Assembly: GCA_963753345.1 (NCBI GenBank)
Contig: CAVWBU010000030.1
Coordinates: 1 to 41,196 of the forward strand
Direction: 5' to 3'
DNA from: an uncultured Fibrobacterota bacterium
GTDB lineage: Bacteria > Fibrobacterota > Chitinivibrionia > Chitinivibrionales > FEN-1185
Length of the DNA: 41,196 nt
Numbering within the stretch: the stretch's first letter is position 1; each line of letters begins with the position of its first letter. Shown here piece by piece: positions 13,159 to 18,178 of the stretch. A model generated the notes under the pieces. That model ran no database searches. It was not told where the DNA came from and saw nothing but the letters and a program-made list of their open reading frames with translations. The position numbers and the translations under genes were made by a program.

Positions 13159-14712
13159 TCACGTGTGCTCCGGCTCCTTTTTTCCCCGCTCATAATAATG
13201 CAGCGCAATCAGTATCACCGCCGCCGCTAAATACACGAGCGCAAACGAGTCTGCCGCGCCGGGCCTCAGGTTGTTGATGACGCCAGCATCCGGGACAAGT
13301 TTGTACGCGTGCATGAGACCGAAATACGACAAGACAGAGCCGGCGAGCATCCAGAGCGCTGCCTTGACAAACTGTCGTTCCATCACAAAAACCATCATCG
13401 ACGAGAGGACCATGCAGGTGAGCATGAAACCCTGGCTCAGGGCAATGATGCCGTAGATAAAAAGGTCGTTGCCGAATTTGGGCGCGGCGTCGAACAGGCT
13501 CGTGCCCGCTTTCATGAGGGCGGTGTTGACAAGCAGTAATGCCCATGACGCAAGGGCCGGGATAAGCCCGAGCGCCACGGCCAGGCCGTGCCGCTTCGGG
13601 GTTTCCGAAAACGCCTGCGCGGTGATGATGATGCCGATCCACAGGAGAATGCCGATCATGGCTTCCATGGGCACCACCTTGAGCACCAGCGTGACCCCGC
13701 CGATAAGGCAGAGCAAGGTGATTACGGACCCGTTGAGTATGGAGTATCCCCAGCGCGCGCCCATTGCTTTCCATCCCGGATGCCCGATGTAAATGGTGGT
13801 CGGAAACGGGCTGCCCAGACACGCCGCCACCACGGAGCCGAACCCGTTGACAAGCAGCGACGACCTGGTCTGGTAGCGATCGCCCGCTGCTTCAGCGCTT
13901 TCCAGGTTCTGCAGCGAGCCCACAACGTTGAACAGCGCCATGGGGAATATCACGGAGAAGTACTTCCAGCCCTGCCCGTCCCGCAGAAAGACGATCATGT
14001 CACCGAAGGCGGCGTGCGGGTAATACACGCGAAAATGATACGGGTCGGCGAGTGGATGGAAATAGGGGAAGCCGCACCATTTGAGGATCCAGGCGATAAC
14101 CACGCCCACCAGCACGGCGACAAAACCGCCGGGCAATCCCAGCGGCAGCCTTATTCTGCCGCCGTAGGCGAACAGCACAAGCAGCATCGGAAGCAGCGCA
14201 AGGACCGGCATGCTGAAAATCTGAAACACGAACCCCATGGAGATGAATGTTATTGCAATACCTGCCAGGGTTGACAAAAGCGCTGCCCGCGGCGTGTGCC
14301 TCCGCACCCAGTCTCCCACAAACGCGCCGATAATTTCCAGGACCGCACTTGCCAGGCACGCGAAAAGCCCTGCCTGCCATGCAAGCACCGCGTTCTTGGT
14401 CGCGAGATAGATAGGCATGATGATAAGGAAAACATAGGCGATGAGACTGACCGTGTTGATGCCGTAGGGCAGGGCGGTAACGTCCTTGCGGCCCGTGCGC
14501 ATTGCCAGTTTTCGGGCCTGCCACGCATAGAAAAGGTTGCCGAACAGGATGGAAATAGCGGCGCCGGGAAGTATCGTGCCGTACACCAGGCCCGCGGGCA
14601 TGCCGCAGAACCGGTTGCAGAACACCGCGATGAGCATGAGCTGCAGGAGATTGTCCACGAACAGCCCGAAGAACCCGTCGATATCGCCGCGCGAAAACCA
14701 TCCTTTGAGCAT
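13159..14712 (-). CDS. NCS2-like/AzgA-related permease
   Basis: Many TM segments; GDIDGFFGLF, TALPYGINT, ESAEAAGD, TTIYIGHPGWK. Upstream of punA. Confidence 0.85.
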   Translation of the reverse strand: MLKGWFSRGDIDGFFGLFVDNLLQLMLIAVFCNRFCGMPAGLVYGTILPGAAISILFGNLFYAWQARKLAMRTGRKDVTALPYGINTVSLIAYVFLIIMPIYLATKNAVLAWQAGLFACLASAVLEIIGAFVGDWVRRHTPRAALLSTLAGIAITFISMGFVFQIFSMPVLALLPMLLVLFAYGGRIRLPLGLPGGFVAVLVGVVIAWILKWCGFPYFHPLADPYHFRVYYPHAAFGDMIVFLRDGQGWKYFSVIFPMALFNVVGSLQNLESAEAAGDRYQTRSSLLVNGFGSVVAACLGSPFPTTIYIGHPGWKAMGARWGYSILNGSVITLLCLIGGVTLVLKVVPMEAMIGILLWIGIIITAQAFSETPKRHGLAVALGLIPALASWALLLVNTALMKAGTSLFDAAPKFGNDLFIYGIIALSQGFMLTCMVLSSMMVFVMERQFVKAALWMLAGSVLSYFGLMHAYKLVPDAGVINNLRPGAADSFALVYLAAAVILIALHYYERGKKEPEHT

Positions 14713-14814
14713 AGTGTGATCTCCAAGGTGCTGTTGATCTGAATAAAATGAATTTGTCATATGATCGAAAGCAACGCTTATTATGGTAAATGCTATTTTC
14801 CATGCCGGTGTTAC

Positions 14815-15867
14815 ATGCGCCACAGTAGAAGAATTCCGCTTCTTTTCCCCCGCACGGCGCGGCCGCTATTCCGCGGTCTGCCGATCGCCGCCGCCGCGGG
14901 TTTACTCTTCGCGGGCTATGCGCTTGTCCGCATGGACGTCGAAACCCTCATGGTGCGCGGCGAAAAGATGGTCGTCCGCGCGTCGTCCTGCCTTCAGGGA
15001 CCGCGGATATTCTCTCTTGCAAACCTCTTCGACAACGATTCGACGACCTGCTGGATCGAGGGTGATGCCGACAGCATTTCCGGCCGCTGGCTCGACATCA
15101 CCTGGCAGGAAAAGAAACGGTTCCGCGGCATTATTTTCGGGCTGGGATGCAGGAGGGACTACACGAGCCTCGCGGAATTCGGCGTCGCCACCGGCCTGCG
15201 GGTGAAGCTTGACGAAAAGGACGCCTTCGACCGGCGGGTGGCGTGGGAATGGGGCAACGACGGGCTGGTGTACGACGGCCTTAACATGCGCAAGGCAATT
15301 CTATGGTTCGATTCCGACACGGCATTCACCACGGCCCAGATGCGGATCAAATTTACTTCGGTGATGAGCGGCAGGCGCTACATCAACGTGGCGATGTCCG
15401 ACATGGAGCCCATTGACGCATTTGACAACCGCTTCGAGCTCCTGACGTTACTTGTGGGCTTGTCGTTCAACCCCAACGACCTGGGCGCCGTGTACTCCCG
15501 GTTCGTTCCCGGCGATCCTTCCGAGCCCGCCGGGATCGCGCAGGTCGTCGACAGCGTTATTTCCTTTTCCGGCGCAAGAAACAGCGGCGACCTTGCGGCA
15601 GCGCTCAACCTCGCGTTCAACGCGCAACCCGAGGCCATCACCGACAATGATGCGATTGTAAAGTTTGTCGCGGCATTCAAGGCGCTGCTCGTGTCCGGGC
15701 CCGATGCGCCCCGGTTCGTGTTCGACGGCCGCAAAGCTTCCTACCTGCTTCCCGTGGGCTCGCTCCGCCATGGACGGTCGCGCATCGACGTGTGGCGCAG
15801 CATCTCCTCGCAGCGCACGTCACGGGGACTTGAGGTGACGGTGGGATACAGTGCGTTTGTGAATTGA
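14815..15867 (+). CDS. Membrane-anchored hypothetical protein with discoidin/F5-8-like domain
   Basis: N-terminal hydrophobic segment, then RASS..NLFDNDSTTCWIEG..G.WL.I discoidin-like motif. Confidence 0.65.
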   Translation: MRHSRRIPLLFPRTARPLFRGLPIAAAAGLLFAGYALVRMDVETLMVRGEKMVVRASSCLQGPRIFSLANLFDNDSTTCWIEGDADSISGRWLDITWQEKKRFRGIIFGLGCRRDYTSLAEFGVATGLRVKLDEKDAFDRRVAWEWGNDGLVYDGLNMRKAILWFDSDTAFTTAQMRIKFTSVMSGRRYINVAMSDMEPIDAFDNRFELLTLLVGLSFNPNDLGAVYSRFVPGDPSEPAGIAQVVDSVISFSGARNSGDLAAALNLAFNAQPEAITDNDAIVKFVAAFKALLVSGPDAPRFVFDGRKASYLLPVGSLRHGRSRIDVWRSISSQRTSRGLEVTVGYSAFVN

Positions 15868-15880
15868 CATTAAATTTTGC

Positions 15881-16972
15881 TCACGTTTTTCCGCCGTTCT
15901 CCAGGCGGGCGTAATGACAGAGCATGAGCTCGCCCGTCTTCTCGTTACGCAAGTGCAATCCGTTGCCCAGGCACCACCGGTACGCCTTGCACGAAGCGCA
16001 AGGCCCGGTTTTTGTCCACGACCTGTTGCGCATGATCCGGAATCTGCCGTTCCAGACCGCCCAGAAATCGTCTTTGTAAATATTCCCCTGGATATAATCG
16101 GCGCGAAGACTCGGACAGGCCGAAATCGAACCGTCGATCAGCACCGATCCAACGGAGACGCCTGCGGCGCATTGGAAATAGTTGTCGCGCGCCGCTCCCT
16201 CATAGCTTCCGAGAAAGCCCTCGCATCCGAAATTCGGCCGCACCCTGCCCTCTTTTTTCGTGTCGACGATGAAGTCCATAAGGTCCACAAACTGCCGGTC
16301 CGAAATCTGCAATTCCGCGTTCGCGGCCGCTCTTCCCTTGGGAAATATAGTAAGCAGGCGCCAGTTGTTTACGCCCCTGTCGTTGAGCAGGTCCTTGATT
16401 TTTGGGAGCTCGCCGAAATTCCGGCGGTTCACGCACGTCGCAACATCAAAGATGATGTTGTCGGTGGCTGCCGCAAGCTCAACTGCCGTCACCGCGCGTT
16501 CGAACGACCCCGCTTTATTGCGAAGCCAGTCGTGCGACGCCCTCAGGCCGTCAAGGCTGATGGTAATGGAGCGCAACCCCGCGTCCAGGAGACGGCCGTA
16601 CCTCTCCCGCGTCAGGGCATAGCCGTTCGTGACGAATCCCCATGGAAAACCGCGCTTGTACAGCTCCCGGCCGCATTGTTCGAGGTCGTCGCGCATAAGC
16701 GGTTCTCCGCCGGTAATGGCGATGGTGGTCCTGTGCGGATCAACACGTTCTTTGATGGAGTCGATGACGCGCAGGAAATCGCTGAGCGGCATATCGGGAA
16801 GTGATGCGTCGCGAAGACAGTCGCTGCCGCAATGGAGACACGAAAGATTGCAGCGAAGGGTGCATTCCCAGAAAAGATAGCGCAGATCGTGGACGCGGGC
16901 GTCAATGCTTTTTTTGATGCCGAACAGGTCGAGCGCAATGCGTTTGCGCAGGGGAATTTTGAGGCCGTTCAT
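15881..16972 (-). CDS. Radical SAM/SPASM enzyme (TIGR04133-like; PlpX splicease-related)
   Basis: FWECTLRCNLSCLHCGSDC, TGGEPL, SLDG..HD..R, SPASM CAAG..DGSISACPSL and C-X2-C-X5-C. Confidence 0.9.
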   Translation of the reverse strand: MNGLKIPLRKRIALDLFGIKKSIDARVHDLRYLFWECTLRCNLSCLHCGSDCLRDASLPDMPLSDFLRVIDSIKERVDPHRTTIAITGGEPLMRDDLEQCGRELYKRGFPWGFVTNGYALTRERYGRLLDAGLRSITISLDGLRASHDWLRNKAGSFERAVTAVELAAATDNIIFDVATCVNRRNFGELPKIKDLLNDRGVNNWRLLTIFPKGRAAANAELQISDRQFVDLMDFIVDTKKEGRVRPNFGCEGFLGSYEGAARDNYFQCAAGVSVGSVLIDGSISACPSLRADYIQGNIYKDDFWAVWNGRFRIMRNRSWTKTGPCASCKAYRWCLGNGLHLRNEKTGELMLCHYARLENGGKT

Positions 16973-17790
16973 CGCTCGATGGAGATCCTGGTTATGGCCG
17001 CGTGCGACTCGGTTTGCAGCTTGAGGAAATAAATCCCGGCTGAAAGGCCTGTCGTTTCCAAATGGGCGTCATGAATGCCGGCCGATTCGGACCTGTTGAA
17101 AAGTTCTCTTATCAGCCTGCCGGTTGCGCCGTATAGCGCCATGCGAACCTGCACTTGTGCAGGAAGCGCATACCGCATTTCGATTGTTCCATTTGCGGAG
17201 CGCCATGCACGCATCGACATGGCCGCCGGGGAAGCACTGGGCCCCATGGGGTTGACCGCCTGGGAGAGCTTCTGCAGATACAATTCGACAGTAACCGTGT
17301 CCGGCCAGCCGCTGCCGGCGGGAACGGAAATCAGGGTGTCTTTGTTTTGGAACGATCCGTTCTGCGCGCCATCGATATCCTGCGCTTCAAGAATCCAGGT
17401 ATTGAAGCCAGGCGCCTGGAAAAACGTCATGTAGAACGACCCGTCGTCTGCCGTGATGGCTGAGTCGATGGTCGCCTTTGTCGCCGTATCCTTCACGGTC
17501 ACTTTTATGCCTTCAATGGTTGCATTGTCGGAAAGAGACTTGAGCGTTCCTTTGATGGTGAACTGCGCGGAGATCGGCCCGTACCAAACGACAACGCCGT
17601 ACAGTGGAGTGATGCCATAGGCAGGAACGACAATCGTTGAATCGGCTTTTGCAAGTCCCTTGCTCGTCGTCTGTATGATCTGGCCGGAGGCATACACAAA
17701 GAACGTGAAAAGGAACGTCACCGCTGCGCCGATTAGCCTGAGCAGCATCATTGACATACGGCCGGGGAGCTTGATGATTTTTTTTGCCAT
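16969..17790 (-). CDS. Exported radical-SAM partner protein with XYG repeats and T9SS/FlgD-like C-terminal domain
   Basis: Signal-like N-terminus; PAYGIT-PLYGVV-VWYGPI; F.IKG..IEGIKV..DIDGAQNG.F beta domain resembling TIGR04134 partners; C-terminal LSAGIYFLKL sorting-domain motif; 4-bp overlap with the rSAM gene. Confidence 0.8.
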   Translation of the reverse strand: MAKKIIKLPGRMSMMLLRLIGAAVTFLFTFFVYASGQIIQTTSKGLAKADSTIVVPAYGITPLYGVVVWYGPISAQFTIKGTLKSLSDNATIEGIKVTVKDTATKATIDSAITADDGSFYMTFFQAPGFNTWILEAQDIDGAQNGSFQNKDTLISVPAGSGWPDTVTVELYLQKLSQAVNPMGPSASPAAMSMRAWRSANGTIEMRYALPAQVQVRMALYGATGRLIRELFNRSESAGIHDAHLETTGLSAGIYFLKLQTESHAAITRISIER

Positions 17791-18178
17791 GGTACCCTCC
17801 GATTGCATGGGCAAGCGCTCCCAAAACGGCGAGGTATAATCACTTTTGATGGGAGCGCATTACTGGGCAGAAAACAGTGTCGGATTCAACACTCATAATA
17901 TAGTCGCGGAAAGACGGAAAGGGTTCATTCTTTTTCTTTGGGCGGGTATCATAGGTTCCCGCTTGAACGTCTTCAAAAAGGTAGGGATTTCGCGCGCCCG
18001 ACAGGAAGGGCGCAAAGCGACGCGAAGTGGTTGCCTCACCAGATTCTTATTTTCAATTTCAATCATACAGTAATCACTTTTCTCTTTCCGCCATCCCACT
18101 CCTCGAACCATATTTCTCTTACAGCAATTTCACCGGCAATTGGAAAAACAAGAAAGAAGAAAAGGAAACAAAGCCGCC

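Follow-up and report, generated by a model that had tools for sequence, protein, structure and literature searches.

A two-gene radical SAM cassette from a Fibrobacterota bacterium and the candidate modification of Tyr-Gly sites in its exported partner protein

Here we describe a two-gene system on the minus strand of a 41,196-nucleotide stretch of DNA from an uncultured Fibrobacterota bacterium (contig CAVWBU010000030.1 of assembly GCA_963753345.1, positions 1 to 41,196; this whole stretch is called the window). It couples a radical S-adenosylmethionine (SAM)/SPASM enzyme to an exported protein that carries three evenly spaced Tyr-Gly (YG) sites. By its profile match the enzyme is a clear member of family TIGR04133, and enzyme and partner together form, at the level of sequence, a TIGR04133/TIGR04134 system. 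The YG sites are probably what the enzyme acts upon. The complete account, in which the enzyme modifies these sites before export with tyramine splicing as the leading candidate chemistry, is one that we would defend and doubt in equal measure.

The partner gene (16969..17790, minus strand, 273 amino acids (aa); defined by its open reading frame (ORF), matches to TIGR04134 and TIGR04183, and 24 homologs) encodes a signal peptide, a YG-bearing tail, a beta-sandwich and a type IX secretion system (T9SS) sorting domain, in that order. The tail holds three xYG units, PAYGIT, PLYGVV and VWYGPI, which are the proposed modification sites. They make up PAYGITPLYGVVVWYGPI, residues 56-73 (17572..17625, minus strand), with Tyr58, Tyr64 and Tyr70, and the motif span 17578-17622 that the first-pass annotation had picked out is Ala57-Gly71. 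When the partner sequence was shuffled, three YG at an exact spacing of six residues arose in 3 of 200,000 shuffles, while three or more YG anywhere arose in 5,480 of the 200,000. The DNA common to the three units is TAYGG only, so the six-residue period is kept at the level of protein.

Conservation of the YG dipeptides in partner homologs, which the first-pass annotation had set as a check, held up: 23 of the 24 homologs (45-95% identity) keep one to four YG in the tail, their number changing by whole six-residue units. The enzyme family is widespread, scoring above its cut-off in 138 of the 296 genomes of the phylum and also in the Bacteroides thetaiotaomicron control. We sampled 30 loci returned by the phylum search plus 20 that were fetched, holding 52 TIGR04133 genes, 47 of which had an upstream same-strand ORF under our filter. 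YG occurs in 45 of these 47 ORFs against 19.8 expected from per-sequence shuffles, and the reverse dipeptide GY occurs in 19. Among the five genes with no filtered ORF, the partner of one (L053) ends 314 bp upstream and that of another (L067) lies downstream. Counted by genus, a YG-bearing exported partner adjoins the enzyme in 14 of the 15 phylum genera examined; at locus L055 (G229:C11) the only neighbor of the TIGR04133 gene is a downstream 512-aa lipoprotein with a single YG at residue 446. Beyond the phylum, YG partners were found in Treponema saccharophilum (SCYGMP), Parabacteroides distasonis (PCEYGSP) and Phocaeicola massiliensis (LCEYGTP).

These partners are of several kinds. Within the phylum they include four canonical TIGR04134 lipoproteins of 154-161 aa (83-95 bits), two proteins of the window type with a sorting domain, one protein with a sorting domain and no TIGR04134 match, and three Cys- or Ser-rich lipoproteins of genus g42 that match no profile. 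These otherwise unrelated proteins are alike in having an export signal and an x-Y-G motif whose next residue is hydrophobic or Pro. The Treponema saccharophilum lipoprotein (L061:3613-4002), itself a canonical TIGR04134 member, has its YG directly after the lipobox Cys (LTSCYGMP), and the residue before the Tyr would there be the lipid-modified N-terminal Cys.

An AlphaFold2 model of the partner (21-sequence alignment, mean predicted local distance difference test (pLDDT) 69) runs from a helix (residues 12-34) through a disordered stretch (33-72, pLDDT 25-38) into a beta-sandwich (75-172) and a second sandwich (192-271). The model thus places the YG sites in a flexible tail between signal peptide and beta-sandwich rather than inside the fold, and the first-pass annotation's picture of a folded substrate gives way to one in which the sites lie ahead of the fold, the last YG four residues before the first strand. 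The predicted signal peptide (residues 1-36; 17683..17790, minus strand; supported by the modeled helix, conservation and the complex model described below) ends in YASG before an invariant Gln37, and it is also the proposed leader for the enzyme. Ser35-Gly36-Gln37, the predicted cleavage site (window 17680-17688), is invariant across the 21 aligned homologs, and residues 35 and 37-39 are placed in contact with the enzyme in the complex model. The "Q-rule", considered as the reason for the invariant Gln37, is a weak one, since the rule is reported as valid for Bacteroidetes and not for the whole Fibrobacteres-Chlorobi-Bacteroidetes group (PMC5837995).

The enzyme (15881..16972, minus strand, 363 aa) scores 548 bits against TIGR04133 in NCBIfam, where the cut-off is 425, and covers all 350 profile positions; Pfam adds Radical_SAM at 66.2 bits and SPASM at 30.2 bits (cut-off 21.5). 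Behind its match to TIGR04103, the PlpX family, to which we return below, come TIGR03913 (122.7 bits), TIGR04053 (120.4) and AhbD (120.3), with PqqE and MftC among the weaker NCBIfam matches. The two motifs that had been singled out, FWECTLRCNLSCLHCGS and CAAGVSVGSVLIDGSISACPSL, are both present, and the other sequence details of the first-pass annotation likewise stand at the coordinates given there. By sequence and alignment, the CX3CX2C radical SAM cluster motif consists of Cys41, Cys45 and Cys48, followed by Gly49 (16829..16852, minus strand), and the SAM-binding motif GGEP (Gly88-Gly89-Glu90-Pro91) is invariant across 14 relatives. The SPASM region (15917..16225, minus strand; Pfam SPASM and alignment), which includes CPSL, holds Cys250, 268, 286, 325, 328, 334 and 352, all invariant in 14 family members. 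A helix at the N-terminus (residues 9-34; 16871..16948, minus strand) appears to be peculiar to the family, in that enzymes from Nostoc and Agathobacter align to the TIGR04133 profile only from position 19-21 on; from its contacts in the complex model, it is the proposed docking site for the signal peptide. A sequence search of the PDB with the enzyme returned no splicease structure, its best matches being cytosylglucuronate decarboxylase (73.7 bits) and then PqqE (42.3 bits).

Where the family stands relative to the tyramine spliceases was approached by comparison and by trees. A tblastn search of plasmids with the enzyme gave three TIGR04133 genes at 50-55% identity, followed by enzymes of Agathobacter rectalis (149 bits), Ralstonia (137 bits, unannotated) and Nostoc (134 bits). 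The Nostoc enzyme, a TIGR04103 member at 853.1 bits, is 28% identical to the window enzyme and has both of the motifs that the first-pass annotation had described as common to PlpX-type enzymes. Its locus includes a Nif11 precursor ending in IALYGLPPELF and a small gene downstream of the enzyme. Both this precursor end and the published splice tags, which read PLYGLPI and YGVVFP (PMC10533398), resemble the window's PLYGVV by sequence; a degenerate DNA pattern for a published tag gave no match in the genome contigs scanned.

The first tree (IQ-TREE, LG+C20) had 32 rows: 20 TIGR04133 sequences, four of the TIGR04103/TIGR03913 clade, the Agathobacter enzyme, a Microbulbifer enzyme, PqqE, MftC, TIGR04053, NirJ, TIGR04347 and one paralog from the window genome, with six distant paralogs of that genome and four near-duplicate TIGR04133 rows excluded. 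It recovered TIGR04133 as monophyletic (100/100) and joined it to Agathobacter and the TIGR04103/TIGR03913 clade at 98/99. In a second tree of 31 rows, for which three true AhbD rows were added and four more TIGR04133 rows dropped, the same grouping stood at 99/95, the heme-type enzymes formed their own clade (95/92), and the branching order among TIGR04133, Agathobacter and the TIGR04103/TIGR03913 clade was unresolved. An approximately unbiased (AU) test rejected the placement of TIGR04133 with the heme-type clade (p = 0.0077). Ten alignment columns have a residue that is found in 15 or 16 of the 16 TIGR04133 rows and in four or five of the five rows on the splicease side, and in no more than 1 of 10 other rows; they include Gly49 (of HCG, found in none of the 10 other SPASM rows), Trp204, Glu258, Arg262, Pro287 and Ser288 (of CPS). 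Because of the trees, the AU test, the shared columns and the profile scores, TIGR04133 is best taken, on these sequence comparisons, as a neighbor of the spliceases rather than as a part of TIGR04103, and as sister or near-sister to TIGR04103 plus TIGR03913. In the phylogeny that the first-pass annotation had proposed as a check, as sampled here, the enzyme groups with the splicease-containing clade and is not nested within it.

Two lineages near the spliceases deserve a record of their own. The Agathobacter rectalis enzyme (L060:5001-6155, a plasmid record) lies between families in its scores (TIGR04103 234.9, TIGR03913 225.2, TIGR04133 184.6 bits) and adjoins a major facilitator superfamily transporter, with no annotated precursor; it may be a further lineage of the splicease-related clade. 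Upstream of TIGR03913-type enzymes are tandem DUF1843 peptides (L062:1787-2242; L063:1653-2366), some of which start with PYG (VRPYGPAM, MIIQPYGAGI), and paralogs of these carry YA or YM instead. The DUF1843 literature gave nothing on radical SAM enzymes or splicing.

A model of the complex combined partner residues 1-90 with the enzyme (on an alignment of 14 rows), SAM and three 4Fe-4S clusters. It scored 0.70 (runs of 0.55, 0.70 and 0.72), against 0.00 for the best of three controls. Among complexes with a solved structure, 58 of 80 attain a score of 0.70, as do 2 of 110 mismatched pairs, a calibration that is only rough here because we used our own alignments and riding ligands, which the calibration did not have. 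At least 23% of contacts are shared between runs, and the pLDDT of the partner is 42-54. In the model, the partner segment that follows the third YG is placed in the enzyme barrel, with residues 71-78 (from the Gly of that YG) touching barrel residues 79-87, 110-114, 134-137, 174-176, 203, 236-240 and 259-263. The signal helix (residues 14-39) runs alongside enzyme residues 9-34, and these are the lowest-error contacts of the model. AlphaFold models in a published splicease study show a comparable arrangement, in which XYG occupies the active site and a helix from the leader or the Y protein rests on the enzyme (PMC11414181).

A leader role also agrees with two independent observations. No other region of the partner is as well conserved as the signal peptide (mean majority fraction 0.83 against 0.55-0.73 elsewhere). 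The g42 lipoproteins adjoining TIGR04133 genes (L009-L038), whose mature parts are Ser- or Cys-rich and cannot be aligned, have an unusual signal start, M-x-x-KHWKK. In three g42 genomes, 11 of 13 KHWKK-coding matches have a TIGR04133 gene on their own strand no more than 3 kb downstream, while the reversed-pattern control gave 5 matches; in one genome, five KHWKK starts stand in tandem upstream of a single enzyme gene (G204:C1:101005-103269). That the signal peptide acts as the leader is a reading we would place just short of an even call.

Taken together, the proposed mechanism would run as follows. The enzyme would be translated right behind its partner, from a shared mRNA, and would act in the cytoplasm, on partner molecules that are unfolded and not yet exported. 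It would grip the signal-peptide helix through its family-specific N-terminal helix while the disordered tail threads into the barrel, where a SAM-derived radical would modify at least one of Ala57-Tyr58-Gly59, Leu63-Tyr64-Gly65 and Trp69-Tyr70-Gly71. If the reaction is splicing, Ala57, Leu63 or Trp69 would be converted to alpha-keto-beta-amino acids. The modified partner would then leave by Sec, shed its signal peptide and, by way of its C-terminal domain, use type IX secretion to pass the outer membrane. What arrives at the cell surface or beyond it would be a beta-sandwich protein whose N-terminal tail is reactive. As the chemistry at the YG sites, tyramine splicing is the leading candidate, with arguments for and against it that we judge to be evenly balanced. 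The modified partner might act as a protease trap at the surface, since ketoamide peptides described so far are inhibitors of serine and cysteine proteases (PMC11626197); this protease-inhibitor function is speculative.

Several points weigh against this account. The first-pass annotation had labeled the enzyme PlpX-like, and family membership does not bear this out: against TIGR04103 the enzyme scores 128.3 bits where the cut-off is 725 and matches only positions 3-283 of 412. The likeness between the window and Nostoc enzymes is not reciprocal-best, because the Nostoc enzyme, which scores 414.5 bits on TIGR03913, matches TIGR04133 (152.0) no better than AhbD (154.1), with NirJ2 (148.3) close behind. 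The first tree gave a long-branch warning, the TIGR04133 stem being long at 2.5 changes per column; the trees hold only eight other SPASM lineages; the group tested in the AU test was named after the tree had been seen; and what we call the splicease clade takes in TIGR03913, whose members are not known to be spliceases. In the complex model, a hydrophobic signal helix can dock trivially on amphipathic helices, and the partner pLDDT is low. As to the sites, homolog P0023, the sole exception among the 24, has AYS and no YG; genus g47 (L055) is the one genus with no YG partner; and the g42 ORF adjoining one enzyme in L017 has no YG. Some YG also escape splicing in known systems, the DYG of RcsA being left unmodified (PMC11626197). 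Finally, the literature searched contained no experiment on any TIGR04133 enzyme.

The alternative that fares best accepts the YG sites as substrate and changes the chemistry, so that the enzyme would carry out some other Tyr radical reaction, such as a C-C or ether cross-link of the cyclophane type, beta-hydroxylation or epimerization, with no loss of tyramine. We consider this a minority possibility, to be taken seriously. SPASM enzymes perform many chemistries on aromatic residues, PqqE and MftC (which match the enzyme more weakly) act on Tyr, TIGR04133 is a separate, long-branched family with about 28% identity to a TIGR04103 member, and we do not know the chemistry of the nearest lineages, TIGR03913 and the Agathobacter enzyme. 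Set against these considerations, the Gly after the Tyr is as strictly conserved as the Tyr itself, known splice sites have exactly this form, x-Y-G with a hydrophobic residue or Pro next, and the trees put TIGR04133 with the splicease clade and not with PqqE or MftC. Thioether cross-linking of the sactipeptide or ranthipeptide kind was considered separately and is ruled out for the window partner, which has no Cys; 19 of the 24 homologs have none in the mature part.

Less probable, and in our view improbable, is that the partner is no substrate at all, with the enzyme making, for example, a ligand of the secreted protein (a small molecule or cofactor), and with YG as a structural or sorting motif where the beta-sandwich begins. 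The position of the last YG, so close to the first strand and within the TIGR04134 profile, speaks for this, as does the nature of the closest solved structure by sequence, cytosylglucuronate decarboxylase being a small-molecule enzyme. On the other side, g42 partners have YG behind the lipobox even though the TIGR04134 sandwich is missing from them, the disordered tail carries one to four YG that differ in number by whole six-residue units, the complex model scores above its controls, and no other biosynthetic gene was found within the two-gene cassette. That the three YG arose by chance or through low complexity, with a meaningless pairing, is very improbable. Single YG are common enough to be expected in 19.8 of 47 partners, yet the spaced triplet and the 45 of 47 far exceed the shuffles and the gene pair recurs in three phyla.

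In the reading that we prefer, the YG sites would be modified before the partner is exported. The partner matches TIGR04134 at 50.6 bits (NCBIfam profile search, cut-off 39.8), residues 69-162 falling on profile positions 32-135 of 150, with the first 31 profile positions unmatched; both profiles being passed, the family pairing made in the first-pass annotation stands. The matched core is the beta-sandwich (residues 75-172; 17275..17568, minus strand; NCBIfam match and AlphaFold2 strands), which is CarboxypepD_reg-like, with a match to Pfam PF13620 of 23.6 bits that lies under the cut-off of that profile. The sorting domain (residues 192-271; 16978..17217, minus strand; sandwich at pLDDT 80-91) matches the type A T9SS profile TIGR04183 at 26.0 bits (cut-off 23; 27.3 bits in the genome scan), which bears out the earlier T9SS assignment, while Pfam PF18962 stays at 23.9 bits, under its cut-off of 27. 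With 117 TIGR04183 matches in the source genome, the type IX system is, as judged from these profile hits, heavily used there. The partner contains no Cys and therefore no lipobox, as the first-pass annotation had also said, and so departs from the lipoprotein (lipobox Cys) by which the partner in a TIGR04134 system is recognized. Foldseek searches with the partner model returned only generic immunoglobulin-like, pilin and DUF3823 sandwiches, with TM-scores of at most 0.33. In a scan of species-representative genomes, full-length relatives of the partner were found at L077 and L078 only, and the remaining 34 loci match the sorting domain alone.

The two genes overlap by four bases, as had been reported, in an ATGA at 16969..16972 (minus strand) that joins partner stop and enzyme start in the manner of translational coupling: the partner ends ATC GAG CGA TGA, and the ATG of the enzyme lies inside the ATGA. 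Upstream, the open frame of the partner extends to a TTG at 17814; we assigned the start to the ATG at 17790, which has a GGAGG ribosome-binding site 5 nt ahead of it (17796..17800, minus strand) and agrees with homologs that start MAKK. Among the ORFs and profile matches of the flanks there is no RRE/PlpY-like, peptidase or transporter gene beside the pair, nor any small gene, in agreement with the earlier remark that no PlpY/RRE gene is adjacent. On one side stands a convergent gene of 368 aa, which matches F5/8-type-C weakly, and on the other a divergent gene that is Mg-chelatase-like. Because the flanking genes point the other way and lack such functions, enzyme and partner form a self-contained two-gene cassette. 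The convergent protein (14761-15867, plus strand) matches the NADase translocation F5/8 type C domain at 22.9 bits, below the threshold of 27, and farther along a 554-aa ORF (13159-14823, minus strand) reads as a multi-pass membrane protein with no Pfam match at E <= 0.001. A scan for promoters and terminators was uninformative (3 promoter-like sites against 1.2 expected, and 4 terminator-like sites against 3.4).

If TIGR04133 enzymes do splice Tyr, backbone ketoamides would be a common decoration of surface proteins, reaching beyond small cyanobacterial and proteobacterial peptides, given a range that takes in nearly half of the phylum genomes, gut Bacteroidales and a Treponema. A broader form of the idea, in which these enzymes use their N-terminal helix to seize the signal helix of a nascent exported protein and splice out tyramine before Sec, so that Fibrobacterota, Bacteroidales and Treponema display ketoamide-bearing surface proteins that are lipid-anchored or delivered by the T9SS, is tentative and, in our estimate, rather unlikely. 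Were this broader reading true, it would extend the backbone editing of ribosomally made products to whole secreted proteins and couple it to the general secretion pathway. A signal peptide that doubles as recognition element would tie modification to export and would be a leader that the cell itself removes, which would be useful to protein engineers. The window pair is a convenient test case, with no lipid anchor, three different sites and a soluble beta-sandwich as a possible purification handle.

Among known systems, the nearest is the TIGR04133/TIGR04134 pair, "radical SAM with putative lipoprotein", two hypothetical equivalogs of NCBIfam whose cut-offs are both passed here by adjacent, coupled genes. 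As in canonical TIGR04134 members, for example GGCMYGPAPEYGMPHADYKVTG in L043 and PCEYGSPHANFQIKG in Parabacteroides, YG in the window directly precedes the beta-sandwich. Unlike the canonical lipoproteins, the window partner has no Cys, a signal of the signal-peptidase-I type (YASG-Q), three YG and an added type A T9SS domain. The enzymes with such partners (window, L040, L041 and L046) form one clade in the trees. The literature searched made no mention of TIGR04133, and TIGR04134 appeared in one paper, as the accession of a type B T9SS domain and with no radical SAM connection.

The tyramine spliceases, of type I (PlpX/PcpX with a Y protein, TIGR04103) and type II (binary RhaX/RhaA), resemble the window system in combining a radical SAM/SPASM enzyme with x-Y-G followed by a hydrophobic residue or Pro, and the window enzyme has WExTLxCNLxCxHCGS and C.AG...DG.I..CPSL as does the Nostoc TIGR04103 member. 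Binary spliceases that work with no Y protein are described (PMC11414181), and the window system is likewise of two components. Unlike the spliceases, it has an export signal peptide in place of a Nif11/NHLP leader (the partner matches TIGR04134 and TIGR04183 only), and what it makes is, instead of a small peptide, a secreted protein of 25 kDa, with no dedicated peptidase or transporter. The TIGR03913 "GDL motif peptide-associated" maturases, which go with DUF1843 peptides, belong to the same wider clade and have some adjoining peptides with PYG; they are about 48% identical to TIGR04103 but 28-32% identical to the window enzyme, and their substrates, unlike the window partner, are small cytoplasmic helical peptides. 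From type A T9SS cargo the partner takes its plan of N-terminal Sec signal and C-terminal TIGR04183 domain, and no T9SS cargo with a cytoplasmic radical SAM enzyme as its paired modifier is known to us or turned up in the literature searched.

Genome mining has been over nearby ground. According to a review, a 2022 study screened radical SAM-SPASM neighborhoods for YG-rich precursors, with such enzymes in 189 genera and 27 confirmed pairs (PMC10849128), and 939 predicted systems are cited in a later report (PMC10533398); TIGR04133 may already be among the predictions of the 2022 study. As a family pair, TIGR04133/TIGR04134 is already catalogued. What is new here is the lipobox-free variant secreted by the T9SS, together with the idea of the signal peptide as leader, and what is particular to the window is a set of three sites with different side chains, Ala, Leu and Trp.

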